This document shows positions 1 to 21,847 of a stretch of 64,000 nucleotides of DNA, piece after piece. Made by a program: the position numbers and the translations under genes. Source of the stretch: a candidate division WOR-3 bacterium (GTDB lineage: Bacteria > Hydrothermota > Hydrothermia > WGAB01); NCBI GenBank assembly GCA_015490555.1, contig WFXO01000029.1:2024-66023 (forward strand), given 5' to 3'. Each line of letters begins with the position of its first letter. Position 1 is the stretch's first letter. The notes beneath the pieces were generated by a model, which saw only the letters and a list, made by a program, of their open reading frames with translations, was not told the DNA's origin and did no database searches.

Positions 1-593
1 GGATGCCGATAAAGAACCTCCACGGCGAAAAGGGCGCCGCCCAGCGGGGCGCGGAAGATGGAGCCGATCCCACCGGCGGTCCCCGCGAGTAAGAGGATCC
101 GCGTATCCCGTGCGGAGAGTCGCAAAAGCCGGCCGAGCAGGGACCCAAACCCGGACCCAATCTGGGCGATCGGTCCTTCGCGGCCCGCGGATCCGCCCGT
201 TCCGATGGTCAACGCAGAAGCCAGAGTTTTAATGACTGGCACGATGGGTCGGACCTGCCCCCGTTTCCGGTGGAACGCCTCGATCACTGCGTCCGTCCCA
301 TGCCCCTCCGCTTCTGGTGCAAAGGTGTAGATCAGCAATCCGGCCAGGAGTCCACCCAGGGCAGGGACCAGCACCAGGAGCCACCGATGTCGGACAATCA
401 CCTCCACAACGTTTCCGAACCCGCCCTCTCCGGCCGGTTTAGGCATCATGTACCCGACCAGCCGCCCCAGGAAAAAGTCTCCCGTCACCCCGAGAAGCCA
501 ATGGAAAAAGACCGCCCCCGCTCCGGACACAATTCCCACAATAGCCCCGAGAAATAACCATTTCCCGAGGTGCTTGATTTCGACCTGTTCCAT
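1..593 (-). CDS. ClC-family chloride channel / H+-Cl- antiporter, N-terminal ~197 aa (gene continues past window start)
   Basis: Reverse-strand translation of 57-240 reads ...PVIKTLASALTIGTGGSAGREGPIAQIGSGFGSLLGRLLRLSARDTRILLLAGTAGGIGSIFRAPLGGALFAVEVLYRH. This carries the GREGP and GxFxP selectivity-filter motifs and aligns with E. coli ClC-ec1 (GREGPTVQIGGNIG...[29 protein letters not shown]). In-frame ATG at 593 (MEQVEIKHLGKWLFLGAI...). Not in the ORF track because it is partial. Confidence 0.75.
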   Translation of the reverse strand, partial: MEQVEIKHLGKWLFLGAIVGIVSGAGAVFFHWLLGVTGDFFLGRLVGYMMPKPAGEGGFGNVVEVIVRHRWLLVLVPALGGLLAGLLIYTFAPEAEGHGTDAVIEAFHRKRGQVRPIVPVIKTLASALTIGTGGSAGREGPIAQIGSGFGSLLGRLLRLSARDTRILLLAGTAGGIGSIFRAPLGGALFAVEVLYRH

Positions 594-677
594 CAGGGAA
601 TTGGGGAGTTTCAAGGTATCTAAATTTTAAGGCGAAACCAGCCTCCATTCCGAGAGTTCCTTTTATAGGTCCATTTC

Positions 678-706
678 TTGACCCTTTAGGGGCATCCCCC
701 TAAAAT
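678..706 (+). promoter_or_regulatory. sigma70-like promoter for the nuo operon (TTGACC-17 nt-TAAAAT)
   Basis: TTGACC at 678-683, a 17-nt spacer, and TAAAAT at 701-706. It lies ~30 nt upstream of an AAGGAG Shine-Dalgarno at 721-726 and the TTG start of nuoH at 734. The region is divergent from the ClC gene. Confidence 0.4.
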
Positions 707-733
707 ACAACGGAATCCCGAAGGAGAACGAAA

Positions 734-1684
734 TTGGCGCAACCCATCTTTCAAACCCTTTGGAAAACCGGGGTTGTTTTTTTAGGGGCGCTCACCGCGG
801 CGGCCTATCTGGTACTGGCGGAACGGAAGTTCGCTGGCTATTTCCAGGAACGGTACGGGCCGAACCGCGTAGGGCCCTTCGGCCTTCTTCAGCCCCTTGC
901 GGATGCCGTCAAACTCCTCCTTAAAGAAGAAGTGATCTTTCCTCAGGCAAGCCGCGGTCTCTACCTGGCAGCCCCGGTCATCATCGGCGTCGCCGCCCTT
1001 CTCCCCCTGGCTGTGATCCCCTTTAGCGAGCACTTTTACATTGCCGATCTGCCGGTGGCGGTGCTCTATCTTCTGGCTGTCGGGTCGCTCAGCACCTACG
1101 GGGTCCTCCTGGGAGGCTGGTCTTCGAACAGTAAATACGCCCTGCTGGGTGGGCTTCGATCCGCCGCCCAAATGGTCTCCTACGAGATCGCCATGGCCCT
1201 GGCCCTCGTCGGCGTCGCCCTAATGGCCCAAAGCCTTTCCCTCGTCAAGATCGTCCAGGCTCAGCAATCCCTCTGGTTCTTGATCCCCCAAATCCTTGGG
1301 TTCGTGGTTTTCCTGATCGCTGCGTTTGCAGAAACCAACCGCTTGCCCTTCGACCTCCCCGAAGCAGAATCGGAACTCGTGGCCGGTTACCACACCGAGT
1401 ACAGCGCCTTTAAATTCGCGATGTTCTTCGTGGGAGAGTATATCCACCTGTTCATCGTAGGATGCCTGGTCACCGTCCTCTATCTGGGCGGATGGTATGG
1501 CCCCTGGAAACCGGGGCCACACTGGTTCTTCCTGAAAACATTCCTCGTCCTGTTCTTCATGATCTGGGTCCGATGGACCTACCCTCGGTTCCGATTCGAC
1601 CAACTCATGCGCTTTAGTTGGAAGGTCTTGATCCCGGTGGCCCTGTTGAATCTCTTGTTGACCAGTTTGTGGATGGCACTATGA
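734..1684 (+). CDS. nuoH: NADH-quinone oxidoreductase subunit H (NuoH/ND1)
   Basis: 316-aa polytopic membrane protein. MAQPIFQTLWKT...ERKFAGYFQERYGPNRVGPFGLLQPLADAVKLLLKEE is the conserved NuoH N-terminus. TTG start with AAGGAG SD 7 nt upstream. Stop overlaps the nuoJ start (ATGA). Confidence 0.9.
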   Translation: MAQPIFQTLWKTGVVFLGALTAAAYLVLAERKFAGYFQERYGPNRVGPFGLLQPLADAVKLLLKEEVIFPQASRGLYLAAPVIIGVAALLPLAVIPFSEHFYIADLPVAVLYLLAVGSLSTYGVLLGGWSSNSKYALLGGLRSAAQMVSYEIAMALALVGVALMAQSLSLVKIVQAQQSLWFLIPQILGFVVFLIAAFAETNRLPFDLPEAESELVAGYHTEYSAFKFAMFFVGEYIHLFIVGCLVTVLYLGGWYGPWKPGPHWFFLKTFLVLFFMIWVRWTYPRFRFDQLMRFSWKVLIPVALLNLLLTSLWMAL

Positions 1685-2175
1685 CGACACTCTTTTGGCT
1701 TTTCGGGGTTTTGGCAATCGTCGGGGCCCTCGGGGTGCTCTTCCAGACCCACCCCGTTCGGGGCGCCCTGTTCCTGCTGTTGAACTTTTTAGCCATCGGC
1801 GTACTTTACTTGCTGGCTCGAGCCCCCTTCGTCGGCTTTGTCCAGATCCTGGTGTACGCCGGCGCGATCGTGGTCCTGTTCCTCGTCGCCATCATGGTCA
1901 TGGACCTCCGACGGTTGGAGTCAGACTTTGACCTCGGACTCATGGGATTCCTGACCTTCGTGCTCGGTGTAGCGTTTTTTGTGATCGTCGCACTCGTCCT
2001 CCTGAAAAACCAGATCCCGGAAGTCTCACCACCCCCGACCGGAACACCAGAAGCCCTGGGAGAGTGGCTGTTCGGACAGTATCTCGTCCCGTTTGAATTG
2101 GCGTCCATCCTCCTCCTGGTCGCAATTGTCGGGGCCATTGTCTTGATCCGAAGGAGAAGACAAGATGTCTCCTAA
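1681..2175 (+). CDS. nuoJ: NADH-quinone oxidoreductase subunit J (NuoJ/ND6)
   Basis: ATG at 1681 (MTTLFWLFGVLAIVGALGVLFQTHPVRGALFLLLNFLAIGVLYLL...) is typical of NuoJ. It overlaps the nuoH stop. The ORF-track start at 1618 is an in-frame upstream extension. Confidence 0.85.
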   Translation: MTTLFWLFGVLAIVGALGVLFQTHPVRGALFLLLNFLAIGVLYLLARAPFVGFVQILVYAGAIVVLFLVAIMVMDLRRLESDFDLGLMGFLTFVLGVAFFVIVALVLLKNQIPEVSPPPTGTPEALGEWLFGQYLVPFELASILLLVAIVGAIVLIRRRRQDVS

Positions 2176-2473
2176 CGCCTACATCCTCCTCGGCCTCCTC
2201 TTGTTTACCATCGGGATGATCGGCGTGCTGTTCCGACGAAACTTGATGTTCATCCTGATGAATCTGGAACTGATGATGAACGCAGTTGGCCTGGTCCTCG
2301 TGGGCGCCTCTCTCGGCGGATGGATCGAAGGACAACTCATCATCCTGATGATCCTTGTGGTCGCCGCCTCAGAGGTGGCCATCGGCATCGGGATCCTGAT
2401 CAACGTCGTCCGGCTTACCGGCCGTCCGGATGTGGACCACCTCCCTAAAGCCCCGGAGGAATCCACACCATGA
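2165..2473 (+). CDS. nuoK: NADH-quinone oxidoreductase subunit K (NuoK/ND4L)
   Basis: 102 aa with three TM helices. MSPNAYILLGLLLFTIGMIGVLFRRNLMFILMNLELMMNAV is the canonical NuoK sequence. Confidence 0.9.
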   Translation: MSPNAYILLGLLLFTIGMIGVLFRRNLMFILMNLELMMNAVGLVLVGASLGGWIEGQLIILMILVVAASEVAIGIGILINVVRLTGRPDVDHLPKAPEESTP

Positions 2474-4359
2474 AGGGGATCCTGCTGATGACCCTTTTTG
2501 CGCCCCTGGCCGGTGCGATCCTCAACGGCTTTTTGGGCACCTGGTTCCGAAAGAAGGCACACTTCCCGGCTATCGTAGCCGTAGGGCTCTCCTTCCTGGG
2601 CTCCCTCGTCTTGTTCCAGTGGAGCCTTCAGCATCCCTTAGGTCAAGAATGGATCCTCTACACCTGGGTCCCTGTCGCCGATCTCCGGGTTCCCTTTGGC
2701 CTCCTCTTTGACCGATTGGCCGCCATCATGCTCCTCGTGGTCACCACCGTCTCCTTCCTGGTCCACATCTACTCCATCGGCTACATGGCAGACGATCCCG
2801 GATATCGCCGGTATTTCGCCTATCTCAATCTCTTCGTCTTCTCCATGCTCCTCCTGGTGCTCGCCAACAACTTCCTGCTCCTCTTCGTGGGCTGGGAGGC
2901 CGTAGGACTCTGTTCGTACCTGTTGATCGGGTTTTGGTATGAGAAAAAGACGGCCTCGGACGCCGGCAAAAAGGCCTTTATCGTCAACCGGATCGGCGAT
3001 GCCGGGTTCCTGTTAGGAATCTTCACCCTGTTTGCGACCTTTGGCACCCTAGAATACACCCGGATCTTTGAGATCGTTCAAAGCAATCCCGGCTACTTCT
3101 CGGGTGTTCTTGCGGCCGCCACCCTGTTCCTCTTCATGGGTGCGGTGGGGAAATCCGCCCAATTCCCGCTCTATGTGTGGCTCCCGGACGCGATGGAAGG
3201 CCCCACCCCGGTCTCCGCCCTCATCCACGCCGCTACCATGGTCACTGCCGGCGTCTACATGGTCGCACGGAGCCATCCCTTGTTCCAGGAAGTCCCTCAA
3301 ATCGGGACCCTGGTGGCCTCCATCGGCGCGTTTACAGCGATCTTTGCGGCCTCGATTGCCCTGGTCACGGATGACATCAAACGGGTCCTGGCGTATTCCA
3401 CCATCTCTCAACTGGGCTACATGTTCGTGGCGGTCGGGCTGGGCGCCTATACGGCCGGGATCTTCCACCTCTTTACCCACGCCTTTTTCAAAGGGCTGTT
3501 GTTCCTGGCCGCCGGCAGTGTGATGCACGCCACCGGCGGGGAACTCAATATGCACAAAATGGGGGGACTGTGGAAAAAGATGCCCCATACTGGTTGGACC
3601 TTCGTCATTGGCGCGCTGGCCCTTTCCGGCATCCCCCCACTGGCTGGCTTTTTCTCCAAAGACGAGATCCTGGCCTCCGCCTTCCGCACCGGACACACCT
3701 TGATCTGGGGCGTCGCCTGGGCAACGGCTTTCCTGACCGCCCTCTACATGTTCCGCCTGATCTTCAAGGTCTTCTTCGGCAACCCCCGGGACCCGGCCCT
3801 CTACGAGCACGCCCATGAGTCTCCGCCCGTCATGACCGTCCCGATGTGGATCCTGGCTGTGCTTTCCGTGACCGTCGGCTGGCTGGGATTGGGCGAAGAA
3901 AGTAGCCTGTTCCACCGATTCCTGGCGCCCACCCTGGGACACCTGGAGATCGTGCCGCCCATGGTCGAAAAAGAGGCCGGGCTCGGCCTAATCCTCTTGT
4001 CCGTCGCGGCCGGCCTGGCCGGCATCTGGCTGGCGTATCAAATGTTCCTCAAGGGGTCTCCAAACCCCACCGCCCTCGCCCAACGCGCCGGCTTCTTCTA
4101 CCGACTCCTGAAAGGCAAATACTACGTGGACGAACTCTATCAAACGGTCATCGTCACCCCGATCCGCGGCTTGGCGGTGCTCACCTTCCGCTTGGTGGAC
4201 CGGATCTTGATCGACGGGACCGTCAACCTCACCGGGAAATCCCTGGCAGCTACCGGCAATGTGATCCGCAAAGGCAGTTCGGCACGGACCCGAACCTACC
4301 TGTTCTGGGTCCTCCTCGGGGCCCACGTGCTCCTGTGGTTCCTATTGAAAGGGAGATAA
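2470..4359 (+). CDS. nuoL: NADH-quinone oxidoreductase subunit L (NuoL/ND5), antiporter-like
   Basis: 629-aa Mrp-antiporter-like subunit (WLPDAMEGPTPVSALIHAATMVTAGVY). ATGA overlap with nuoK. Confidence 0.9.
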   Translation: MKGILLMTLFAPLAGAILNGFLGTWFRKKAHFPAIVAVGLSFLGSLVLFQWSLQHPLGQEWILYTWVPVADLRVPFGLLFDRLAAIMLLVVTTVSFLVHIYSIGYMADDPGYRRYFAYLNLFVFSMLLLVLANNFLLLFVGWEAVGLCSYLLIGFWYEKKTASDAGKKAFIVNRIGDAGFLLGIFTLFATFGTLEYTRIFEIVQSNPGYFSGVLAAATLFLFMGAVGKSAQFPLYVWLPDAMEGPTPVSALIHAATMVTAGVYMVARSHPLFQEVPQIGTLVASIGAFTAIFAASIALVTDDIKRVLAYSTISQLGYMFVAVGLGAYTAGIFHLFTHAFFKGLLFLAAGSVMHATGGELNMHKMGGLWKKMPHTGWTFVIGALALSGIPPLAGFFSKDEILASAFRTGHTLIWGVAWATAFLTALYMFRLIFKVFFGNPRDPALYEHAHESPPVMTVPMWILAVLSVTVGWLGLGEESSLFHRFLAPTLGHLEIVPPMVEKEAGLGLILLSVAAGLAGIWLAYQMFLKGSPNPTALAQRAGFFYRLLKGKYYVDELYQTVIVTPIRGLAVLTFRLVDRILIDGTVNLTGKSLAATGNVIRKGSSARTRTYLFWVLLGAHVLLWFLLKGR

Positions 4360-4363
4360 CGCG

Positions 4364-5863
4364 ATGCTGAGCGTGGTCATCTTCGCACCCCTGGTGCTGA
4401 GCCTCCCGCTCTTCTTCCTGCGGGGGCGAAAGGCATGGTTTGGCTATACATGGTTTGCCAGCGTGGTGGTCTTTGTCTTGTCCCTGGCTTTGCTCCGGGG
4501 CTTCCAATGGGAGACCCCTGGCTTCCAATGGGAACAGCAGGTGGAATGGCTCCCGACCCTCGGGGCGTCCTATCACATCGGGATTGATGGCCTCAGCCTC
4601 ATCCTGATCCTGTTGACCACCTTCTTGACCACGATCTCCATTCTCGCGTCGTTCCGATACATCCAGCACCGGATCCGGGAATTCTGCATTGCCATGCTCG
4701 TCCTGGAAGGCGCCATGATCGGCGTCTTCGCCTCCCTCGACCTCCTCCTCTTCTTCATCTTCTGGGAAGTGATGCTCGTCCCGATGTTCCTGTTGATCGG
4801 GGTCTGGGGCCACGACCGACGCATCTATGCGGCCTTCAAGTTCGTACTCTATACCATGGCCGGCAGCGCGTTCCTCCTGTTCGCCATCCTCGTCTTACGG
4901 CTCAAAACCGGGACCTTCGACCTGGTCACCCTGCAACAGACGGTCGGCAACCTTCCGGGTGCGATCCAGCGCTGGGCGTTCCTGGCGTTCGCGATCGCCT
5001 TTGCCATCAAGGTGCCCCTGGTCCCCTTCCACACCTGGCTCCCGGACGCCCACGTGGAAGCCCCCACCGCCGGCTCCGTCCTCCTCGCCGGGATCCTCCT
5101 GAAAATGGGCGTCTATGGCTTCCTGAGATTCAACTTTGCGCTGTTCCCCTCGATCGCCCGGGACCTGGCACCCCTGTTCATGGCCCTCGGGGTGATCGGC
5201 ATCCTCTACGGTGCATGGATGAGTTGGGTCCAAACGGACCTGAAAAAACTCATTGCGTATTCTTCGGTGGCACACCTGGGCTTTGTCATCCTGGGGATCT
5301 TCACGTTTACCCCCTGGGGGCTCCAGGGCGGGATCCTGCAGATGGTCAACCACGGGCTCTCGACCGGCGCCCTCTTCCTGGCCGCCGGCCTGCTCTATGA
5401 ACGAAAACACACCCGCGAGATGAGCCAATTGGTGGGCATCGGGAAATTGATGCCCGTCTTTTCCACCGTGTTCGGCATCGTCATGCTCTCCTCGATCGGC
5501 CTCCCCGGCTTGAACGGCTTTGTGGGCGAATTCCTGATCCTTCTCGGCACCTTCCAGGTGAGCAAAACGCTCGCCTTCTTCGGTGTGCTGGGCATCATCT
5601 TTGCCGCCGTGTACATGCTCTCCATGTTCCAGAAAGTCGTGTTCTCGCCTCCTCGAGAAGAGGATCGGGGGTTGCTGAAAGATCTGACGCTCCGCGAGTG
5701 GCTGGTGTTCGTGCCTCTCCTGGTCTTCATCTTCGCCATCGGCGTCTATCCCCGGCCCTTCTTGAAATTCGGAAAGATCCCCAGCCAGCAGGTCATCGAA
5801 CGGGTTGCGCCGGAAACCCCGACACCGACCCTGTCCCCACACGCAGAGGAGGGAGAACCATGA
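4364..5863 (+). CDS. nuoM: NADH-quinone oxidoreductase subunit M (NuoM/ND4)
   Basis: 499-aa antiporter-like subunit (FHTWLPDAHVEAPTAGSVLLAGILLKMGVYG). Confidence 0.9.
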   Translation: MLSVVIFAPLVLSLPLFFLRGRKAWFGYTWFASVVVFVLSLALLRGFQWETPGFQWEQQVEWLPTLGASYHIGIDGLSLILILLTTFLTTISILASFRYIQHRIREFCIAMLVLEGAMIGVFASLDLLLFFIFWEVMLVPMFLLIGVWGHDRRIYAAFKFVLYTMAGSAFLLFAILVLRLKTGTFDLVTLQQTVGNLPGAIQRWAFLAFAIAFAIKVPLVPFHTWLPDAHVEAPTAGSVLLAGILLKMGVYGFLRFNFALFPSIARDLAPLFMALGVIGILYGAWMSWVQTDLKKLIAYSSVAHLGFVILGIFTFTPWGLQGGILQMVNHGLSTGALFLAAGLLYERKHTREMSQLVGIGKLMPVFSTVFGIVMLSSIGLPGLNGFVGEFLILLGTFQVSKTLAFFGVLGIIFAAVYMLSMFQKVVFSPPREEDRGLLKDLTLREWLVFVPLLVFIFAIGVYPRPFLKFGKIPSQQVIERVAPETPTPTLSPHAEEGEP

Positions 5864-7236
5864 TCCCGGTCCACCTGTTGGCCCCAGAATTTGCCGTCAC
5901 CGGGACCGCGCTCCTCATCCTGCTCCTCTCGTTTCTGACCCCACGCCGCCACCAGATCGCAGGCTCAATCACGGCCCTCGGACTCCTCCTGGCGATGTTC
6001 CTGGAAATGGGCAGCATGGGCCATTCGGCCACCCTGCTCATGCTCCAGATTGACCCGATCACCCGGCTCTTCAGCCTCATCTTCATCCTGGGCACCTTCC
6101 TGGTGACCCTCCTGACGGTGGATACCTTCGAAGAATGCCCTCCCGAAGTCTATTTCTTCCTCCTCACCGGCCTCCTGGGGATGATGATCCTCGCCAAGTC
6201 CACCCACCTGGTCCTGACCTTCCTGGCTCTGGAACTGCTGTCCTTCTCCCTGTTTGTCCTGGTTACCCTGGTGCGGACCCCGAAAGCCGTGCATGCGGGC
6301 GTCAAGTTCTTCCTGGTTGGCGCCTTCTCCTCTTCTTTTCTCCTGATGGGACTGGCCCTGCTCCTGGCCGCCGGCGGCAACCTCTCCTATGAAACGGTGT
6401 TCCACGCGTCCCGGACTCCCTTAGGACTGCTTGGCCTGATCTTCCTGCTGGTGGGCTTCGGGTTCAAACTCCTCTATGTGCCGTTCCACTTCTGGGCGCC
6501 GGATGTCTTTGAAGGCGCCCCGTCCGCCATCGTCGCGTATGTCGCCTCGGCTCCCAAGGCGGCCGGCATCGCCATCTTGATCCCGATCCTGACCCGTGGC
6601 TTCGCTCCGTATCTCCCAATCTGGGCTTCGACCTTCACGACCCTGGCCTTTCTGACCATGATCGCCGGGAACCTGGCCGCCCTCCGCGAAAGGAACGTCA
6701 AACGGATGCTCGCCTTCTCCACCGTGGCCCATGCGGGCTACCTCCTCGTGGGCTTCGCAACCCACACCCCGGCAGCCTACGCCTCCTTGTTCCTCTACCT
6801 CCTCATCTATGTGGTCATGACCATTGGCGCCTTCGCAGGGATCGTGGCCCTCCAGGAAGACGCCACCCTGGATGACCTCAAAGGCCTCGCCACCCAGTCT
6901 CCGCTGTTGGCGTTCTTGACGAGCCTCTTCTTCCTCAGCCTGGCCGGGATCCCCCCGACGGGCGGGTTCGTCGCAAAACTCTATCTCTTCAAAGCCGCGA
7001 TACAGGGAGGCCAGGGCGGACTGGCCTTCTTTGCGTTCCTCAATAGCGTGGTCTCCGCCTACTACTACCTCCAGGTACCGGCGGCGTTGTACATGCACAC
7101 ACCGGCCGGCCCCACCCACCGGCTCCCCGAAAAACCGATGCTCTCCTCTGCCCTCTGGATCGGACTCGTGCTCGTCTTCTACCTTGGCCTGTTCCCCGAT
7201 AGTGTGTACTGGGTCATCCAAAACCTTTTCCGCTGA
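5860..7236 (+). CDS. nuoN: NADH-quinone oxidoreductase subunit N (NuoN/ND2)
   Basis: ATG at 5860 (MIPVHLLAPEFAVTGTALLILLLSF...) overlaps the nuoM stop (ATGA). Antiporter-like motifs are present (FHFWAPDVFEGAPSAIVAYVASAPK). The track ORF 5698-7236 carries a spurious 54-codon N-extension in the same frame. Confidence 0.85.
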   Translation: MIPVHLLAPEFAVTGTALLILLLSFLTPRRHQIAGSITALGLLLAMFLEMGSMGHSATLLMLQIDPITRLFSLIFILGTFLVTLLTVDTFEECPPEVYFFLLTGLLGMMILAKSTHLVLTFLALELLSFSLFVLVTLVRTPKAVHAGVKFFLVGAFSSSFLLMGLALLLAAGGNLSYETVFHASRTPLGLLGLIFLLVGFGFKLLYVPFHFWAPDVFEGAPSAIVAYVASAPKAAGIAILIPILTRGFAPYLPIWASTFTTLAFLTMIAGNLAALRERNVKRMLAFSTVAHAGYLLVGFATHTPAAYASLFLYLLIYVVMTIGAFAGIVALQEDATLDDLKGLATQSPLLAFLTSLFFLSLAGIPPTGGFVAKLYLFKAAIQGGQGGLAFFAFLNSVVSAYYYLQVPAALYMHTPAGPTHRLPEKPMLSSALWIGLVLVFYLGLFPDSVYWVIQNLFR

Positions 7237-7976
7237 TGCAGGTCCATCGTTTGACCGTCGCCTCGATCCAATTTACGAACCCTCAGGTCTTCTTGTTGGA
7301 ACTCCAGGCCTATGCGGGCGACCCGCCACAGCCCGGCCAGTTCTTTGAATTCAAGATCGGCGAGGGCTTCGACCCTCTGCTCTGGCGCCCGATGAGTGTG
7401 ATGGACGCCTGGAGCGACCGCCTCCTTTTCCTGACCCAACTCCGCGGACGGGGCACCCAATGGCTCGCTCAACGCTCCGAAGGAGATATGATCGAGATCC
7501 TGGGCCCCCTGGGCCGGGGGTTTCCGATCCCCGAGGAACCGGTAACCCTTGTGGCAGGAGGGACCGGCGTCGCCCCCCTGTACTTTCTGGCCCGGCGGCA
7601 TCCGGACCGCGTTCAGAAACTCATCGCCGGCTTCGCCACCTCCCCGGGCCAACTCCTGCTGGACCGATTCTATGCCCTGCCGGTGCCCGTGATCCTCACG
7701 ACCGAAGATGGCTCCTTAGGCCTTCCAGGGACCGTCCTCGACGTCCCGGACCTCCAGGACCGCCCCCTCGTGTATCTCTGCGGACCCGGCGGCATGATTC
7801 GACGGTTCCAAGAACTCGGCTTCGAAGGGTGGATGTCCTTAGAAGATGTGATGGGGTGCGGCACCGGACTCTGCTTCGGATGCGCCGCATGGCACCGCAA
7901 AGAACAACGCTATGTCCGCACCTGCGTCGAAGGCCCGGCCTTCCCCCTCCAGGACGTGGAATCCCTCCTGTTTTGA
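7236..7976 (+). CDS. PyrK-like FAD/NAD(P)-binding oxidoreductase with C-terminal [2Fe-2S] motif (dihydroorotate dehydrogenase electron-transfer subunit family)
   Basis: 246 aa. RPMSV (RxYS-type FAD-binding) and GGTGVAPLYFLARR (NAD(P)-binding GGxG) are present. C-terminal CGTGLCFGCAAW...RTC cysteine cluster as in PyrK/NfnA/SudB/AsrB. Start ATG overlaps the nuoN stop (TGATG). Confidence 0.75.
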   Translation: MQVHRLTVASIQFTNPQVFLLELQAYAGDPPQPGQFFEFKIGEGFDPLLWRPMSVMDAWSDRLLFLTQLRGRGTQWLAQRSEGDMIEILGPLGRGFPIPEEPVTLVAGGTGVAPLYFLARRHPDRVQKLIAGFATSPGQLLLDRFYALPVPVILTTEDGSLGLPGTVLDVPDLQDRPLVYLCGPGGMIRRFQELGFEGWMSLEDVMGCGTGLCFGCAAWHRKEQRYVRTCVEGPAFPLQDVESLLF

Positions 7977-8035
7977 GATACCTCCCGCCTCACCTCACCC
8001 CTACCCCCCAACTCGGCTCCGCTAAACTATGCCGT

Positions 8036-8108
8036 CCCCCTTTCCCAAAGGGGGATTCAGGGGGATTCTTCTCTTCCCCCTTTTCCAAAGGGGGACCGAG
8101 GGGGATTC
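8036..8108. repeat. Two tandem ~33-nt palindromic units with 40-nt period (REP-like extragenic palindromes)
   Basis: Unit 1 (8036-8068) is CCCCCTTTcccAAAGGGGGattcaGGGGGATTC. Unit 2 (8076-8108) is CCCCCTTTTccAAAGGGGGaccgaGGGGGATTC. Each contains an 8-bp perfect inverted repeat CCCCCTTT/AAAGGGGG with a 3-nt loop, followed by a GGGGGATTC direct repeat. They lie in the convergent intergenic region between the PyrK-like gene (+) and the dipeptidase gene (-). Confidence 0.6.
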
Positions 8109-8168
8109 CACCACAAACCACAAACTACTCACCACCCACTACAAACTACAAGCCACAAACCACACGCC
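8109..8168. repeat. CA-rich degenerate ~10-nt tandem repeat (CCACAAACTA-like)
   Basis: caccacaaaccacaaactactcaccacccactacaaactacaagccacaaaccacacgcc contains almost no G/T. This is unlike the surrounding GC-rich DNA. Confidence 0.5.
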
Positions 8169-8189
8169 ATGTTTACGACTCTCCCCAAA

Positions 8190-8211
8190 CCCCTCCCTGA
8201 CCAGGGAGGGG
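8190..8211 (-). terminator. Candidate stem-loop terminator downstream of the dipeptidase gene
   Basis: CCCCTCCCTG-ac-CAGGGAGGGG, a 10-bp perfect GC-rich inverted repeat 56 nt past the minus-strand stop at 8267. On the minus strand it is followed by TTTGGGG, so the U-tract is weak. It could also serve the + strand. Confidence 0.35.
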
Positions 8212-8266
8212 CTATATGGTGCAGTGGATCCTGTCCAGGAATGGGCCCATATGTTGAGATCAAGAC

Positions 8267-9226
8267 TCAGGTAGCAGGAAGATGGGTTTGGAGGTATCGG
8301 ATTGCGTTTTCGTGGGTCCAGGCCTCCAAGGTCTTTTGGGAGACACCGGCCTGTCCCAGTGCCCGAACCACGTCCTGGATCTTTTCCACCCGCTCGATGC
8401 CGGGGATCTCATCCTCCTTGCCGAAGCCAAAGAAATCGGTCCCTACGGCCAACCCATTGGGGAAAGCCTGCAGGAGTTCTGTCAGGGTCTGGACGAGGTC
8501 TTCGAAGCCCATCTGTTCATCCTCAAAGAAGAGCCGGGCCAGGGCCACGCCGACAATGCCTCCCTTTTCCATCACCCGTCGGGTGACGTCCCAGGAAATA
8601 TTCCGTGTCTTCTTCGGCTGTTTCAGGATCCCCGTATGGGACACGATGGGGGGACGGATGTCCATCTCTAAGACATCCGCGTAGGTCCTGGGAGACGCAT
8701 GGGCCAGGTCCAGGATGAATCCGAGGTCCGAGGCCTTTTCGACCATCTGCCGTCCAAACGGGGTGAGCCCCTGGTCATGGGGGTCACTGGCCCCGGTTGC
8801 CCACAGATTGGAGACGTTCCAGGTCAGGCCCAGGATCCGGACCCCGATCCGATAAAGAGCCCGGAGCAGCCAGACATCCGTGAGTTCATAGGCCCCTTCA
8901 TAGGCCAGGAGGATACCAATGCGATTCGAGGCCAAACACCGTTCCAGGTCCTTCTGGGTCTCCAGGATCATGAGGTCATCCGCGAACTGTTCCGCCAGTT
9001 CTCGCGTCTTCTCCGCGGCCCGAAGCACGTGTTTGATCGCATCTTCAGAAAGATAGGTGCCCCAATGACGCCGTAAGGAAAAGATCGCCCCCACAACGAT
9101 TTTGTAGTCGCCCTTCCGCCAGGAGGGGAGATCGCCGTGAAGGTGGGGACACACTTGCCCGAAATCCAGGGACCGTTCTCCCTGGATCGTCGTGATCACG
9201 TCTTCATGCAGATCGACCACCCACAT
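8267..9226 (-). CDS. Membrane (renal-type) dipeptidase, peptidase family M19
   Basis: 319 aa. MWVVDLHEDVITTIQGERSL..., LGLTWNVSNLWA and ILDLAHASP are M19 dipeptidase signatures (DLHxD, zinc ligands). Confidence 0.8.
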   Translation of the reverse strand: MWVVDLHEDVITTIQGERSLDFGQVCPHLHGDLPSWRKGDYKIVVGAIFSLRRHWGTYLSEDAIKHVLRAAEKTRELAEQFADDLMILETQKDLERCLASNRIGILLAYEGAYELTDVWLLRALYRIGVRILGLTWNVSNLWATGASDPHDQGLTPFGRQMVEKASDLGFILDLAHASPRTYADVLEMDIRPPIVSHTGILKQPKKTRNISWDVTRRVMEKGGIVGVALARLFFEDEQMGFEDLVQTLTELLQAFPNGLAVGTDFFGFGKEDEIPGIERVEKIQDVVRALGQAGVSQKTLEAWTHENAIRYLQTHLPAT

Positions 9227-9239
9227 GGTTTCCTCCCTG

Positions 9240-11249
9240 TCAAAACTCCCAATGGGATTGGATCTTCGCCACGATGGCTTCCGGTGTCAGCCCGAAGGCC
9301 TGGAAGACATCCCGATACGGTGCCGATTTCCCGAACGTTTCCACGCCGATCACCAGGCCCTCGCTGCCGACATACCGGTACCAACAACCGGGATGTGCGG
9401 CTTCGATGGCGACCCTCCGGGTGACCTCTGGGGGCAGCACGGTGTGGCGGTACGCCTCCGGTTGCTCTTCGAAGAGTTCCAGGCTCGGGACACTGACGGT
9501 CCGAACGCGGATCCCCTTGGTTTCCAGGGCGTCGTGGACCTGGAGAGCGAGATAGACTTCTGAACCTGAGGCCATCAAGAGGAGGTCCGGGGTCCCGGAG
9601 GAATCTTTGAGGACATAGGCGCCCTTTCGGGTCCCCTCTGCTCCCCCGAGTTCGGAACGGTCCAGGATAGGGACCCCCTGTCGGGTGAGCAACAAAGCCA
9701 CGGGTCGATGTCTGAGGTTGACGGCGATTTCCCAGGCGTAGCGGGTCTCATTGGCGTCCGCAGGTCGGAGCACGACCAGCCCCGGGATGAGCCGGAGGGA
9801 AGGCAGGTGTTCCACGGGCTGATGGGTCGGCCCATCCTCGCCCAGTCCGATCGAATCGTGGCTAAACACGAAAATGACGTGGAGATGGCTCATGGCGGCC
9901 AGGCGGATCGCCGGCCGCATGTAGTCCGAGAACACCAAAAAGGTCCCTCCAAAGGGAAGGATCCCCCCGTGGTAGGCCAACCCGTTGAGGATGGCCCCCA
10001 TCCCATGTTCCCGGACCCCGAAATGCAGGTAACGACCCGTGCGATTTTGGCGGGTGAACACCTCGATGTTTTTCAGGTCCAGCCCGTTGGAGCCCCGAAG
10101 GTCTGCAGAGCCGCCCATCATGCCTTCAATTTTGGACACAATCACATCCAGCACTTTTTGGGACGCCTTCCGGGTGGCCAGGGGTCCATCCTCAGGCCGA
10201 AAGGCCGGCAACTCTTCTGCTGAGATGGGGCCAAATTCGCCACGAGAAAAAAGGTCCAGTTTTTTGGCTTTCTCGGGGAATTCCCGTTGATAGGCCTCCC
10301 AGAGTTTTCGCCATTCCGCCTCTCGTTGTTGTCCCAGTTGACGGTGCCGTCGCATATACGACAGCACATCTTCCGGCACTTCAAAGGGGGCGTAAGGCCA
10401 GTTCAGGCGTTTGCGAGTCTCTGCCACCGCTTCGGGTCCTAAGGGCGCGCCGTGGGCCGAGGCCTGATCCTGCTTGGGGCTCCCATAGCCGATATGCGTC
10501 CGCACGGCGATAAGGGAGGGCCGATCCGTCACTGCTTTGGCCTCTTGAATGGCCTGATCGATGGCCTCCAGGTCTGTTCCGTCGTCCACCCGGAGTGTGT
10601 GCCACCCCAAGGCGTCAAACCGTCGGAGGACATCCTCTGACCAGGCGAGGCGGGTGGGGCCGTCAATCGAAATACGATTGTCATCCCAGAGGACGATCAG
10701 TTTGCCGAGCCCCAGGTGTCCTGCGAGGTTCGCCGCTTCGTGGGAGACCCCCTCCATCAGATCGCCATCGCTGGCGATGACATAGGTGTAATGGTCAATC
10801 ACGGGAAACCCCGGCTCATTGTATGTCGCCGCGAGGTGAGCTTCGGCGATCGCCATACCTACGGCATTGCCGAACCCCTGTCCCAGGGGACCCGAGGTGA
10901 CTTCGACGCCAGGCGTCAGGCCAAACTCCGGATGGCCGGGTGTGATGCTGTTGAGATGGCGAAACCGTTTGATGTCGTCCAGGGTGATGTCGAACCCGGT
11001 CAGATACAGGAGGGCGTAAAGGAGCATCGAGCCGTGGCCGGCGGATAACACGAATCGGTCCCGGTTGATCCAATGGGGGTTCTGGGGGTTGAATCGGAGA
11101 TGCCGATCCCAGAGCACGAAGGCCATGGGGGCGGTCCCCATCGGCATCCCCGGGTGTCCGGACCGGGCATGTTCCACGGCGTCAATCGCCAAAAAACGGA
11201 TGGCGTTGATCACCCGTTCTTCAAGGTCTGGATGATTGGATGGGGTCAT
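9240..11249 (-). CDS. tkt: Transketolase
   Basis: 669 aa. N-terminal ...[65 protein letters not shown] carries the canonical TPP-binding/transketolase motifs. Confidence 0.9.
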
Positions 11250-11752
11250 GGTCCACTCCTTTCTATCTTGATGGACAGAGGATCGTCTTCTGAAATTTGT
11301 AAATCTCCCGAGTCCTCAGCAATACAGAGCCGCACAAAAGGAATCGAGTGTTCCTGAAGTATTTTTTCAATATCGAACCAGGGTGCGTGAAACAGGTGGG
11401 ATTTGCAGGAGCAATCGGAACTCCCAAAGCCCAGCGCGGCGATTTCAAAACGGCCTTGCAGGAGTTCTGCCAGAGAACACTCGATAGGGTGATCCGAAGG
11501 GATCAGATAAATCCGTGACGGAAGCGTGGCCCCCAAAATCTGGTCAATATGCCAGTGGGGTGGCCGAGGAGATCGAGGCTTCTTTTGGTGGAACCTCAGG
11601 TGTCGGGCCACCCGTTGGAAGCCCTGGGATCCCATGGCAGAGCCGACATAGACCAACGGGCTTCTGAGCCACTGCTCTCGAGGCCGCTGGATCCAGAGTT
11701 CGCCGGGAAACTCAAAATAAAGAAGATACGCACCTTTCTGTTGGACAGCCAT
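11246..11752 (-). CDS. DUF123 / COG1833 Uri-superfamily (GIY-YIG-like) endonuclease family protein
   Basis: 168 aa. [27 protein letters not shown] and HWHIDQIL match the G-Y-Y-x-GSA / RxxRH / HWHIDYL signature I recall for archaeal DUF123 proteins. Stop overlaps the tkt start (ATGA). Confidence 0.5.
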
Positions 11753-11990: not shown

Positions 11991-12063
11991 GGGGCCGTAG
12001 CTCAGTTGGGAGAGCGTCAGGCTGGCAGTCTGAAGGTCGTGGGTTCGAATCCCACCGGCTCCA
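11991..12063 (+). tRNA. tRNA-Ala (anticodon GGC)
   Basis: 73-nt cloverleaf. Acceptor GGGGCCG/CGGCTCC with the G3:U70 Ala identity pair. D arm GCTC-AGTTGGGA-GAGC. Anticodon arm TCAGG-CTGGCAG-TCTGA (GGC at 12024-12026, U33/A37 present). T arm GTGGG-TTCGAAT-CCCAC. Discriminator A. No encoded CCA. Confidence 0.85.
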
Positions 12064-12075
12064 CTTCTCTTTTTT

Positions 12076-15976: not shown

Positions 15977-16474
15977 TTATCCAATCCAATGAATCTCGAA
16001 GGGGAGGGGCGGGGGACTTTCCCTATTGCCGAAAATCGCCCCTCGTTCCCGGGGCACCCACACGGCCTTGGGCTGTACACGCTGATAGACCTCTTGAAGA
16101 ATGTCGAAAAACGGCCCTTCCCTCAATTCGGTCGTTACGGAAAACCCCTGACTTGTCAGTTCCTCTTGGAGTTCTTTTAGCCGTTCTTTAGCCCTTTCTC
16201 GCAGTTCTTCTGTAATCACGGCTCGTACTTCCTGACTGGGTGCTTCCCCCATAAAGCCGAGATAAAGGAGCCAGGTCGAAACAGATTCTGGGAAACGCCC
16301 ATCCAGTACATACAGGATATGGATGGTCCCTTTCTCCGCAAACCTTCGAAGATTTTCCGCCACGTTGGGGGCATCTCTTGTGGGCGAAAGGGCCAAAAGG
16401 ACATCCATGTCTTTAATGTAACGCCCGGCTCGGAAACATACAAATCCCAGTTGCGGAAGTTGTAAGGGTCCCAT
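15977..16474 (-). CDS. Universal stress protein (UspA family)
   Basis: C-terminal ...GTIHILYVLDG...ELREGPFFDILQEV... is Usp-like. ATG at 16474 is preceded by GGAGA. An alternative start is ATG 16408 (MDVLLALSPTRDAP..., a typical Usp N-terminus). The track ORF extends to 16741, which is a spurious extension across the divergent MBL gene start. Confidence 0.55.
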   Translation of the reverse strand: MGPLQLPQLGFVCFRAGRYIKDMDVLLALSPTRDAPNVAENLRRFAEKGTIHILYVLDGRFPESVSTWLLYLGFMGEAPSQEVRAVITEELRERAKERLKELQEELTSQGFSVTTELREGPFFDILQEVYQRVQPKAVWVPRERGAIFGNRESPPPLPFEIHWIG

Positions 16475-16486
16475 ACCATCTCCGAC

Positions 16487-17236
16487 ATGGAGATTCTCTT
16501 CCTCGGAACAGGCACCGGGATTCCAGGAAACGGTCGGCGGCCGACCAGCGTCGCGATCCGGGAGGGCTCGGAGACCCTCCTGATCGACGTGGGACCGGGA
16601 ACCATCACGACCTTTGGGAATGAAGGATTCTCCCTTGCCGATCTCCGTGCCGTGATCCTGACCCATTTCCACCTGGACCATTGTTCGGATCTCGGGGCCC
16701 TGCTTTTCGCGATGAAACATGGGCTTCCCCAACGGACCCACCCTCTACACCTGTGGGGCCCCTCAGGACTTCGTGTCTGGCTTGATCGTCTTCGGGCCCT
16801 CTTCGGCTCCCAAATCGACGTGCCGTTTGACCTCCACGTCCATGAGGTCACGCCCCCGAGCCGTGCCATCCTGGGCCCCTTCCAATGTCAATTTTGGAAA
16901 ACGCAGCACACGGACCACAGCCTGGGAGTCATTGTGGAGGTTGAAGGGCGGAAAGTGATTTACACCAGTGACACGGAATTTTCAGAGGCCTGGGTCCAGC
17001 AACTGCCCCAACATCCCGAAGTGTTGATTACGGAATGCTCCCTACCATTTCGGGTTCCCGGCCATATGATCCCGGAAGAGGCCGGCCAGGTGGCTCAACG
17101 GATCCATGCCCAATCCTTGTACTTGGTCCATCTGTATCCCCTCCTCTCCCCCGCTGAAGCCGTCCGAAGGGCTCGGAAGACCTATCAGGGGCCGATTGAG
17201 GTCCCGACCGATGGGTTTCGGCTCCTGGTGCCTTAA
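16487..17236 (+). CDS. MBL-fold metallo-hydrolase (RNase Z / RNase BN-like)
   Basis: MEILFLGTGTGIPGNGRRPTSVAI...LLIDVGPGT...ILTHFHLDHCSDL matches the RNase Z-type HxHxDH pattern. Confidence 0.7.
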   Translation: MEILFLGTGTGIPGNGRRPTSVAIREGSETLLIDVGPGTITTFGNEGFSLADLRAVILTHFHLDHCSDLGALLFAMKHGLPQRTHPLHLWGPSGLRVWLDRLRALFGSQIDVPFDLHVHEVTPPSRAILGPFQCQFWKTQHTDHSLGVIVEVEGRKVIYTSDTEFSEAWVQQLPQHPEVLITECSLPFRVPGHMIPEEAGQVAQRIHAQSLYLVHLYPLLSPAEAVRRARKTYQGPIEVPTDGFRLLVP

Positions 17237-19055: not shown

Positions 19056-20625
19056 CGAACACCTCCCTGAAGACATCGGAGATTTCTCCCAGCGTGGCCC
19101 CGGCTTTGAGGGCTTCCAAGATGGGAGGGACCAGATTTGCATCCTTTTGTGCTTGCTCTTTCAGGTCTCGCAAGGCTCGAAGGACCGCATTGGAGTCGCG
19201 GTATCTTTTGTATTGTTGAAGCCGCTGGATCTGCTCCTGTTCGATCCGGGGATCGACCTTCAGGATTTCCTGGACCTGGGGTTCCTGTTCTTCTTCCCGA
19301 AACCGGTTGACTCCGACTACGGTGGTCTCGCCTCGTTCGAACTTCTTCTGTGCCTCATAAGCGCTTTGTGCGATTTGTTCTTGGAAGAAGCCAGACTCTA
19401 CGGCGGCCACTGCCCCTCCACGCCGGTCGATCTCTTCCAGGAGTTCCCAGATCCGTTCCTCCATCTGATTGGTCAGGCTTTCCACAAAATAAGAACCTGC
19501 CAAGGGATCCACGGTATCCGGTACACCGGTTTCATAGGCAAGAATTTGCTGGGTCCGAAGGGCCAATTTAGCCGATGTATCCGCGGGCAAAGCCAAGGCC
19601 TCGTCGTAGGCATTGGTATGAAGGGATTGGGTCCCGCCCAGCACAGCCGCAAGGGCTTGATAGGCCACACGGATCAGGTTGTTTAAGGGTTCAATGGCTG
19701 TCAGGGTGACCCCACCGGTCTGAGTATGGAATCGAAGGCGCCAGGACTTTTCGTTCTGGGCGCCGAAGCGATCCCGCATGATATGGGCCCAGATTCGACG
19801 GGCTGCCCGGAACTTCGCAATCTCTTCAAAGAAGTAACTGTGGGCAGCAAAGAAGAACGAAAGACGGGGTGCAAAGGCATCCACATCGATCCCCCGGCGT
19901 TGGACTTCCTCGACATAGGCAATCCCGTCGGCCAGGGTAAACGCGACCTCTTGGACCGCGGTGGCTCCCGCCTCGCGGTAGTGATAACCAGAGATGGAGA
20001 TCGGATTCCAGCGAGGGAGATGCTGGGCGCAGAACTCGATCAAATCTCCCACCAGGCGCATGGAAGGCTGCACAGGATAGATGTAGTTCCCACGTGCGGC
20101 AAACTCCTTCAGGATGTCGTTTTGGACCGTACCCCGTAAGACCTCCGGTGAAACACCTTGCCGTTCGGCAATCAAGATGTACATTGCCAGCAGGATGGGC
20201 GCTGTGGCGTTGATCGTCATGGAGGTCGAGACCTGATCCAAGTGGATGCCTTCAAAGACCTGGGCCAAGTCTTCCGGGGTCGAGATGGCCACCCCTGTCC
20301 GCCCGACCTCTCCTTCGGCCATGGGGTGATCCGAGTCGTAGCCCAACTGTGTTGGTAAATCAAAAGCCAGGGAAAGCCCGGTTTGTCCTAAGGAAAGGAG
20401 GTATCGGAACCGTTCGTTGGTCTCTTTTGCCGAGCCGAACCCCGCGTATTGGCGCATGGTCCAGAGCCGACGGCGATACATCCCGGGATAGACCCCACGC
20501 GTAAAGGGGAACTGGCCGGGTTGACCGAGTTGTCGGTCAGGATCAAAGCCCGCCAAGTCTTCCGGGCCGTATACCTCTCGAATCGGGATCCCCGATGGGG
20601 TTTTCCGAACCTCTTCCTCGGCCAT
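19036..20625 (-). CDS. Methylmalonyl-CoA mutase catalytic (N-terminal) subunit, lacking the B12-binding domain
   Basis: 529 aa. FTRGVYPGMYRRRLWTMRQYAGFGSAKETNERFRYLLSLGQTGLSLAFDLPTQLGYDSDHPMAEGEVGRTGVAI is a classic MCM (beta/alpha)8 substrate-barrel sequence. The protein ends before any DxHxxG B12-binding domain. Confidence 0.85.
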   Translation of the reverse strand: MAEEEVRKTPSGIPIREVYGPEDLAGFDPDRQLGQPGQFPFTRGVYPGMYRRRLWTMRQYAGFGSAKETNERFRYLLSLGQTGLSLAFDLPTQLGYDSDHPMAEGEVGRTGVAISTPEDLAQVFEGIHLDQVSTSMTINATAPILLAMYILIAERQGVSPEVLRGTVQNDILKEFAARGNYIYPVQPSMRLVGDLIEFCAQHLPRWNPISISGYHYREAGATAVQEVAFTLADGIAYVEEVQRRGIDVDAFAPRLSFFFAAHSYFFEEIAKFRAARRIWAHIMRDRFGAQNEKSWRLRFHTQTGGVTLTAIEPLNNLIRVAYQALAAVLGGTQSLHTNAYDEALALPADTSAKLALRTQQILAYETGVPDTVDPLAGSYFVESLTNQMEERIWELLEEIDRRGGAVAAVESGFFQEQIAQSAYEAQKKFERGETTVVGVNRFREEEQEPQVQEILKVDPRIEQEQIQRLQQYKRYRDSNAVLRALRDLKEQAQKDANLVPPILEALKAGATLGEISDVFREVFGEYQEA

Positions 20626-20659
20626 GGCCTAATTATAACCTGGGTTGCCGAGGAGAAGG

Positions 20660-21847
20660 CTAAAAGACGCGAACCTGATCTTCTAAGATCAAGCGGTACA
20701 ACTGTGGCAGGGCCTCTAAATGCCGCGCCACAATGCGCTGTATTTCGGGCGATAAAACCCTGAGAGACACCTGGGATACCGAGACCCACGTCTGACATAA
20801 CTGTGGCTCGGTAATCGGCTTCCCAATCTCCGACACCAACAGGACATGAGCCTCTTCTACCTCGGGGAGCGAATGGACCAGATCTTCGGCAATCTGCTGC
20901 GCCACCACGTTGTAGAGTTTTCCGACGTGGGAGATCGGGTTCTTGCCTGCGGCGGCTTCCAGGGTCATCGGACGCAGGGGCGTAATGAGGCCGTTGACCC
21001 GATTACCTCGGCCCACCTGGCCGTCGTCCCCGCCCTCTGCCGAAGTACCGGTCACGGTCAGATACACCGAATCTTCCGCATCTGCCGTGTTAATCGCGAC
21101 CGAGATTTCCAGGTCGGTCTGATCCGAAAGAAACGTGCGGACATGATCTAAGAGTTGATGTTTCTTCTCAAAGTAATCCTGGAACGACTGGACATGAGCA
21201 CTGACAAAGGCCACGGCCAGGGTCAGATCCAGGTTCCTGCCCCTTCGGATGGCCATGACCTTAATGTCTTCTCCCACCCAGGGAAATTGTTCTTTTAACG
21301 TGGGACTGTTTAAGTCCTGCTCGATTGACAAGACCAAGCGTTCGGTTTCAGAAAGGGGATAAAAGCCCACCCCATAGGAGGTATCATTGGACAAAGGGAC
21401 AGCATCGCTCCGGAGAAACAGATCCACGAGGTCAGGGCTTCCGGGTCGGACCCAGAGGGAAAACTCGATATGGTGCTCGACGTCCAGGTGTCGAAGGGTC
21501 TGTTTGAGGTATGTTTTTACACTCTCCTGATAAAGGTCTTCAAGGGGGACGACATGGTCATCCACGCGATCTGTGGCTCGGCCCACGAGGTAAAAACGCA
21601 TGGGAATCTCGACGTCTCCTCCGCCGAACCGTGGTGTGGCGTGTCCTCCGACGAGAAGGGCCTTATCGACATTGTGATGGAGGACCCGTCCATAGGTTTC
21701 CAAATAATATCGGGAGAGCGCGCGAGAGAAAGCCTCGACCATCCCATCCGTCAGGGAATCTGGATGCCCGATCCCCTTCCGTTCCACGACTTCTACGTCC
21801 ATGTCCCGGACCCGATACCCCGACCACGGGGCCACCCGAATTTCCAT
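20660..21847 (-). CDS. Archaeal-type S-adenosylmethionine synthetase (MAT, Pfam AdoMet_Synthase family)
   Basis: 395 aa. [73 protein letters not shown] aligns with M. jannaschii MAT ([20 protein letters not shown]...[23 protein letters not shown]). It is unlike bacterial MetK. Confidence 0.8.

Follow-up and report, generated by a model that had tools for sequence, protein, structure and literature searches.

A nuoHJKLMN operon ending in a pyrK-type gene in an uncultured WOR-3-like bacterium: probably the membrane-arm half of a split complex I gene set with a 3′ passenger

Introduction

Is a flavoprotein whose gene overlaps the last gene of a complex I operon a working partner of complex I, or an unrelated protein whose gene came to lie there? 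The question is raised by a locus at positions 734-7976 of a 64-kb stretch of contig WFXO01000029.1 (assembly GCA_015490555.1; the whole 64,000 nucleotides analysed are referred to as the window), in which nuoH, J, K, L, M, and N, without nuoI, are followed immediately by a pyrK-type gene. PyrK, a subunit with FAD and a [2Fe-2S] cluster, works with PyrD of class 1B to pass electrons from dihydroorotate to NAD+. The original prediction, which had been made from the DNA letters alone, offered two readings: capture of an unrelated redox gene by a split nuo operon, or a dedicated electron-input or assembly partner of a complex-I-like module. The comparisons reported here favour the former. The locus is read, with a probability of roughly 65%, as the ordinary membrane-arm half of a split complex I gene set, carrying pyrK as a passenger at its 3′ end, in an uncultured WOR-3-like bacterium (FCB group) whose nuo genes would be divided between loci.

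Gene content and junctions of the operon

Seven co-directional forward-strand genes were identified at 734-7976 from an open reading frame (ORF) listing and from profile searches with Pfam and NCBIfam. The first, nuoH (734-1684, 316 aa), has a TTG start with an AGGAG Shine-Dalgarno sequence upstream and matched NF004741 with 373 bits (cutoff 305); in the near-identical locus L086 the gene is called identically. It is followed by nuoJ (1681-2175, 164 aa; PF00499, E=1e-36, 126 against a cutoff of 33.2), nuoK (2165-2473, 102 aa; NF004320, 83.8 against 57), nuoL (2470-4359, 629 aa; NF005141, 762 against 556), nuoM (4364-5863, 499 aa; TIGR01972, 576 against 264), nuoN (5860-7236, 458 aa; TIGR01770, 337.6 against 332.6), and the gene for the pyrK-type FAD/[2Fe-2S] flavoprotein (7236-7976, 246 aa; PF10418, 42.6 against 23.9). 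The curated NCBIfam/TIGRFAM cutoffs for complex I were exceeded by NuoH, K, L, M, and N; NuoJ passed with Pfam only and stayed under the NCBIfam equivalog cutoffs for NuoJ. NuoL is of full length including its C-terminal region, with positions 2-629 of the 630 of the TIGR01974 profile covered.

The predicted gene content (nuoH-J-K-L-M-N without nuoI, then a 246-aa PyrK-type protein) was confirmed by these searches and by direct reading of the junctions. The same reading bore out the TGATG overlap at the end of the operon, where the ATG of pyrK and the stop codon of nuoN have one base in common. The further statement that all six genes overlap by 1-11 nt held at H/J, K/L, and M/N (ATGA each) and at J/K (11 nt), but not at L/M, where the genes are separated by a 4-nt gap (TAAcgcgATG). 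The ATG of nuoJ overlaps the nuoH stop, and there is therefore no space for nuoI between the two; apart from nuoI, the order H-(I)-J-K-L-M-N is kept with tight spacing. GGAG-type Shine-Dalgarno sequences precede nuoH, K, L, M, and N, and none was found in the junction sequences before nuoJ or pyrK, so both genes presumably rely on reinitiation after the upstream stop codon.

Identity of the flavoprotein

The domain PF10418 was present in all 120 best homologues of the window flavoprotein, and the named ones are annotated as the electron-transfer subunit of dihydroorotate dehydrogenase (DHOD). The motifs RPxS, GGxGxAP, and CGP were found in the window protein, and its cysteines C208, C213, C216, and C230 (C-x4-C-x2-C...C) were invariant in 52 homologues and align to the cysteines of Lactococcus lactis PyrK. 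The latter was also the best sequence match in the PDB (88.8 bits; NfnA 75, NfnI-S 63), and the best NCBIfam models were the four PyrK equivalogs (145 bits, compared with 72 for an Nfn/Sud-like model). In an AlphaFold2 (AF2) model (predicted local distance difference test score 92.5, predicted template modelling score 0.91), an FNR-like FAD/NAD(P) module is joined to a C-terminal [2Fe-2S] domain, and the top Foldseek matches were the PyrK chains 5ksw_B (template modelling score, TM, 0.85) and 1ep1_B (TM 0.81). The L. lactis protein (PDB 1EP1/1EP3/5KSW, chain B) thus resembles the window protein in its FNR-like FAD/NAD module and C-terminal Cys4 [2Fe-2S] cluster and is its best match in both sequence and structure; the window gene differs in that it does not lie by pyrD, in length (246 aa against about 260 aa), and in scoring below the NCBIfam cutoffs.

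That the protein is instead a PyrK-fold subunit of another two-component oxidoreductase, either of Nfn/Sud type with a GltD-like partner or AsrB-like, and that its place after nuoN is incidental, was considered and is judged unlikely. The gene is an orphan without pyrD nearby, as are its two nearest homologues that are not linked to nuo genes; the PyrK equivalog cutoffs are not reached; and, among the 44 of 181 WOR-3 metagenome-assembled genomes (MAGs) listed in a KEGG Orthology (KO) table whose entries depend on the KO thresholds, most have a GltD-like gene annotated but no gltB. The AF2 model matched NfnA and NfnI-S (SudB; PDB 4YLF_A and 5JCA_S), small subunits of NADH-dependent ferredoxin:NADP+ oxidoreductase, with TM values of 0.81-0.84, nearly equal to those of PyrK. 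With 0.85 for PyrK and 0.84 for NfnA, the fold alone cannot discriminate, and the ligand pattern is needed. For NfnA/SudB, ligation of the [2Fe-2S] cluster by Asp(Cys)3 is documented (PMC8097209), and NfnA/NfnI-S accordingly read MVDGTGMCGAC, with Asp first, whereas the window protein (MGCGTGLCFGC...C) has Cys where 4ylf_A and 5jca_S have Asp, as does PyrK (MACGIGACYAC...C). The flavin motif likewise is RPxS in the window protein and in PyrK and IPLT in NfnA/NfnI-S. The cysteine cluster had originally been described as matching NfnAB and SudAB; the common fold stands, but the cluster ligands are Cys4, as in PyrK. The Nfn proteins also have an adjacent GltD-like partner, and no GltD-like (NfnB/SudA) gene was found adjacent to the window gene or among the annotated ORFs of the window. 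Finally, the scores of the profile models and of the PDB search favour PyrK, and 46% identity is shared with a PyrK (P0007) that sits inside a complete pyr operon (pyrC-carB-pyrK-pyrD-pyrF-pyrE).

Identities to the window flavoprotein were 99% within its own species, 55% for the related locus L001, and 35-46% for all others. At a similar distance, orphan pyrK genes are frequent: those of P0003, P0004, P0011, and Deferrisoma camini all lie in unrelated neighbourhoods. Among 18 more distant metagenomic PyrK loci, 13 have pyrD directly downstream; no class-1 pyrD was found in the 64-kb window. The last gene of the operon is most likely the organism's pyrK, for which a PyrD partner is predicted.

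Pyrimidine genes are scattered in this lineage. In the window, pyrB and pyrC adjoin each other at 58257-60484 on the reverse strand, apart from pyrK and without pyrD; in the related locus L120, pyrB-pyrC (20236-21401) was seen within 10 kb of the nuo operon.

Linkage of pyrK to nuoN among relatives

A search with NuoN returned a sharply bounded group (P0161-P0174) of contigs that carry the same six-gene operon among unrelated neighbours. The stand-alone nuoHJKLMN operon is common to five lineages, represented by the window, L001, L116, L118, and L120, and pyrK follows nuoN in only two of them, the window and L001. The operon of L001 lies at a contig start and has the order HJKLMN-pyrK-folK. 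No pyrK was found after nuoN in L116, L117, L118, or L120; nuoN is followed by a convergent AhpC/peroxiredoxin gene in L116 and L118 and by a DegT aminotransferase gene in L120. In a wider comparison set, composed of the 80 loci nearest by NuoL in GTDB genomes (L006-L085), pyrK was within 10 kb in none, and a metagenome scan with an alignment of the window and P0002 PyrK proteins returned only PyrKs of <=37% identity and no further members of the nuoN-pyrK lineage. Mention of pyrK together with nuoN was not found in the literature that could be searched, nor was anything usable on "nuoHJKLMN".

A neighbour-joining tree was calculated from NuoH, L, M, and N (1603 gap-free columns, Kimura distance, 200 bootstraps). 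The window grouped with L116 and L118 as (window,(L116,L118)) at 86%; L001 joined this group at 100%, and L120 joined at 100%. The nearest relatives of the window by Nuo proteins (L116 and L118) thus lack pyrK at nuoN, and L001, farther off in the tree, carries it. The simplest history of the link would be a single gain and a later loss, the alternative being two gains; under either history, the link is dispensable to an otherwise strictly conserved operon. An ancestral nuoN-degT-pyrK arrangement, suggested by the DegT gene after nuoN in L120 and another before pyrK in L002, was rejected: identity between the two DegT proteins is just 33%, and no homologue of DegT is encoded in the window.

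The original prediction had named, as a pattern that would speak against a bond between the two genes, relatives in which nuoN is followed by unrelated genes and pyrK lies by pyrD. This pattern is half borne out: unrelated genes do follow nuoN in L116, L118, and L120; the closest PyrK homologues are mixed, lying in unrelated contexts or in a classical pyr operon. The first reading of that prediction, capture by a split nuo operon, is supported by this comparison of relatives, in which nuoN-pyrK occurs in two lineages of five, and the second, a dedicated partner, is disfavoured by the missing linkage in L116, L118, and L120 and in the 80 NuoL-nearest loci.

As a dedicated partner, the PyrK-like protein would either serve as an NAD(P)H-oxidising input, in place of NuoEFG or in addition to it, or help in assembly or repair, and translational coupling would keep its amount in a constant ratio to that of NuoN. 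The overlap of its start codon with the nuoN stop, the missing Shine-Dalgarno sequence of pyrK, the retention of the linkage in L001 at only 55% protein identity, the lack of pyrD nearby, and scores under the NCBIfam PyrK cutoffs are all consistent with such a role, and alternative electron-input modules recruited by partial complex I enzymes are documented (PMC4453560). The 11-subunit complex-I-like enzymes (Campylobacter Nuo with flavodoxin, cyanobacterial NDH-1, archaeal Fpo) likewise offer a precedent for an input protein other than NuoEFG encoded with nuo genes; there, however, the genes replace nuoE/nuoF or sit with those of the peripheral arm and do so clade-wide, whereas pyrK lies after nuoN in two of five lineages. 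Co-occurrence across the operon-sharing clade, as expected of an accessory or input subunit of complex I, was not found: L116 and L118, which are closest by Nuo, and L120 all keep the operon without the linkage. The gene sits with those of the distal antiporter-like subunits, far from a possible docking site for electron input, and no sequence feature distinguishes its product from bona fide PyrK. PyrK is, moreover, reported to need PyrDB for incorporation of its cluster and FAD (PMC8097209), which argues against a free-standing role. In L001, pyrK itself overlaps folK through TAATG; folK belongs to folate synthesis, and no role for it in complex I is conceivable; tight coupling at the operon tail therefore also recruits plainly unrelated housekeeping genes. 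A dedicated partner is accordingly considered improbable. Rated marginally lower still is the narrower proposal that, in this WOR-3-like lineage, a complex-I-type enzyme whose genes for NuoI and for the input module lie outside their expected places has taken on the PyrK-fold flavoprotein as an NAD(P)H-linked partner in electron transfer or maturation, the coupling to nuoN reflecting a stoichiometric association.

The missing complex I subunits

Queries for NuoA, B, C, D/CD, E, F, G, and I were taken from related loci, validated with Pfam, and used in tblastn searches. None of the corresponding genes turned up in the window, in a further 8.5 kb upstream in the near-identical locus L086, or in the loci of the clade. 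The earlier statement that no nuoA-D lies upstream therefore holds for the window and for these additional 8.5 kb. A weak match to NuoG at 28021-28323 (E=6e-5, 107 aa) was dismissed as spurious; it lies in the metK region (27318-28463).

In the comparison set, 64 of the 80 loci have nuoH. In 41 of these, nuoJ comes right after nuoH and a NuoI homologue is lacking within 10 kb; the order H-I-J was found in 20. The gaps between the H and J hits in the former 41 are 18-409 nt, all but one below 240 nt. The absence of nuoI between nuoH and nuoJ is therefore ordinary; among the nuo operons closest by NuoL, no other layout is as frequent. In 25 of the 41 H-J loci nuoA is present and nuoB is missing, and many H-J loci are otherwise complete (A-C-D-E-F-G-H-J-...-N), in Acidobacteriota, Poribacteria, Latescibacterota, and NC10/Rokubacteria. 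It follows from this completeness that both small Fe-S subunits, NuoI and NuoB, are simply encoded elsewhere; in MAGs of these groups, the small Fe-S subunits of the Q module are systematically encoded apart from the nuo operons. Fully split clusters that begin at nuoJ or nuoH were also seen (L016, L032, L055, and others). Several H-J loci were observed to have a second, inverted L-M-N set close by.

Passenger genes inside a nuo operon were found as well. On a Latescibacterota chromosome (OZ252149.1; L006:3068-18639), the order is nuoA-nuoCD-nuoE-nuoF-[HAD hydrolase]-nuoH-J-K-L-M-[CitMHS_2 transporter]-nuoN, directly followed by ATP synthase genes (atpI/R, atpB). In Rhodothermus marinus, pcd and nhaD are said to belong to the nqo10-14 operon, and nqo8 and nqo9 reportedly lie elsewhere. 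The window locus resembles such split nuo/nqo clusters in that the membrane-arm genes form an operon of their own, the other subunits are presumably placed elsewhere, and an unrelated gene is probably co-transcribed. It differs in that exactly H-J-K-L-M-N are kept together, without A and I, and in that the probable passenger is pyrK. Split complex I gene sets are reported to be common across clades (PMC12361115).

It might also be asked whether nuoHJKLMN belongs to a complete complex I at all; it could be a relic, or a membrane module working with a peripheral module that is not of Nuo type (e.g., Mbx/Mbh-like). Such a reading would account for the missing nuoI and nuoA, is in line with the lack of nuoA-D and nuoI in the 64 kb and the 8.5-kb flank, and finds a parallel in the nuoB/C/D/H/N-like genes without nuoA, I, J, K, and L recorded for many WOR-3 MAGs in the KO table mentioned above, which was not used for or against nuoI. 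The six Nuo proteins, however, are of full length, have no frameshifts, and are 61-71% identical across the five lineages; five of them (all but NuoJ) score above curated complex I cutoffs; and relatives often lack nuoI (and often nuoB) but are otherwise complete (A, C, D, E, F, G, H, J-N), which implies that these subunits are encoded elsewhere. A relic or a membrane module of this kind is thus regarded as very unlikely.

Flanks and reproducibility of the locus

A divergent ClC gene and a promoter had been predicted upstream of the operon, and both parts of the statement agree with what was found. The 5′ part of a ClC chloride-channel/CBS gene occupies 1-593 on the reverse strand (ATG at 593) and is cut by the window edge; the complete gene in L086 encodes 609 aa with PF00654 and PF00571. 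A sigma-70-like promoter candidate for the nuo operon, TTGACC-17-TAAAAT, lies at 678-706 on the forward strand; it is a match to the consensus only, and the sole promoter-like match within 400-8600. Beyond the end of pyrK, a G+C-rich hairpin, CCCCCTTTYCCAAAGGGGG, occurs twice on the forward strand, at 8036-8055 and 8076-8095 (minimum free energy -54.5 kcal/mol, z=-2.7). The hairpins at 8036-8095 likely mark the end of the transcription unit as putative terminators; a scan for consensus terminators gave them no score.

The spacer after pyrK (7977-8266) was observed to be rich in repeats, with hairpin units CCCCCTTTYCCAAAGGGGGA...GGGGGATT and, after them, CA-rich ACCAC/ACAAACC runs. Compared with L086:15813-16456, it shows a 354-bp indel between strains that are otherwise about 99% identical. 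The window has two adjacent hairpin units (8036-8095), and the longer L086 variant has one at this place and two degenerate copies near the far end.

The layout ClC / nuoHJKLMN-pyrK / M19 dipeptidase-transketolase was recovered, up to the contig ends, in at least six assemblies: two MAGs from NCBI, three from Logan, and one from ENA. An assembly error that fused a nuo locus to an unrelated pyrK locus, which the original prediction had allowed for, would be suggested by the unusual gene neighbourhood and nothing more; it can be set aside, since these six independent assemblies with identical junctions exclude a chimera, and the 55%-identity relative L001 shows the same order.

Proposed mechanism and points that weigh against it

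With pyrK read as a passenger of a split nuo set, a single transcript would cover nuoH-N and pyrK, beginning at the promoter near 678-706 and ending at the hairpins near 8036-8095. A proton-pumping complex I would be assembled from NuoH and NuoJ-N together with NuoA-D and NuoI (and, where it exists, NuoEFG), whose genes presumably lie elsewhere in the genome. Translation of pyrK would proceed by termination-reinitiation at the nuoN stop codon, probably at a low rate that is tied to the translation of nuoN. PyrK would then pair with PyrD-1B, from a pyrD gene expected elsewhere in the genome, and electrons would pass from dihydroorotate via FMN, [2Fe-2S], and FAD to NAD+. Any connection between PyrK and complex I would be limited to the common NAD+/NADH pool and to common expression, without a physical link. 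On this account, pyrK came to occupy the 3′ end of the nuoHJKLMN operon in one sub-lineage.

Several points weigh against this explanation. The nuoN-pyrK junction is kept in two lineages whose PyrKs are only 55% identical, and this, together with the lack of a Shine-Dalgarno sequence of its own before the window pyrK, indicates that the linkage and coupling have long persisted. The window flavoprotein falls under all four NCBIfam PyrK equivalog cutoffs (best NF000799, 145 against 314), and neither the window nor any related locus of this lineage yielded a pyrD. That the organism has a complete canonical complex I is, in addition, an assumption.

Taxonomic signals and other genes of the window

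The closest NuoL among GTDB representative genomes is from Latescibacterota (58% identity), and the best named matches of LepA are from candidate division WOR-3 (65-68%). A protein with a Por_Secre_tail domain is encoded upstream of the locus (in L086), which fits an FCB-group, WOR-3-like organism, as does a V-type ATPase subunit; genomes of WOR-3 are reported to have mostly V/A-type ATPases (PMC12542636). The gene for this subunit, D (PF01813; 52453-53067, reverse strand), stands alone between genes for an aspartate dehydrogenase-like protein and a PilT-like ATPase, with no other V-ATPase subunits nearby.

The remainder of the window consists of housekeeping genes. Two unrelated S-adenosylmethionine synthetases are encoded 6 kb apart, one of archaeal type (20660-21847, reverse strand; PF01941, E=1e-151) and one bacterial MetK (27318-28463, forward strand; PF00438/02772/02773). 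Genes were also found for an McsB-like ATP:guanido phosphotransferase of the protein arginine kinase family (PF00217; 47295-48359, reverse strand) and for a hybrid sensor kinase of 1648 aa (32174-37120, forward strand) with about five PAS domains, two GAF domains, HisKA/HATPase, and a receiver domain. A DUF123 (GIY-YIG-like) gene (11246-11752, reverse strand) adjoins tRNA-Ala(GGC) (11991-12064, forward strand), and the 146.9-kb contig of L086 ends at this site, suggesting a repeat or variable region. Two ORFs, of 609 aa (55105-56934, forward strand) and 254 aa (15977-16741, reverse strand), had no Pfam match at E<=1e-4/1e-5.

Conclusion

Were the flavoprotein a partner of complex I after all, it would be a new kind of electron-input or assembly protein and would bear on the electron source of complex-I-like enzymes without NuoEFG. 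Most likely, the locus is largely ordinary, and pyrK is a passenger rather than a new complex I subunit. If pyrK is indeed a passenger, the locus is chiefly a warning that a stop/start overlap and an adjacency kept over moderate evolutionary distance do not by themselves prove a functional partnership. Nuo operons without nuoI, often also without nuoB, are widespread in several poorly studied phyla.

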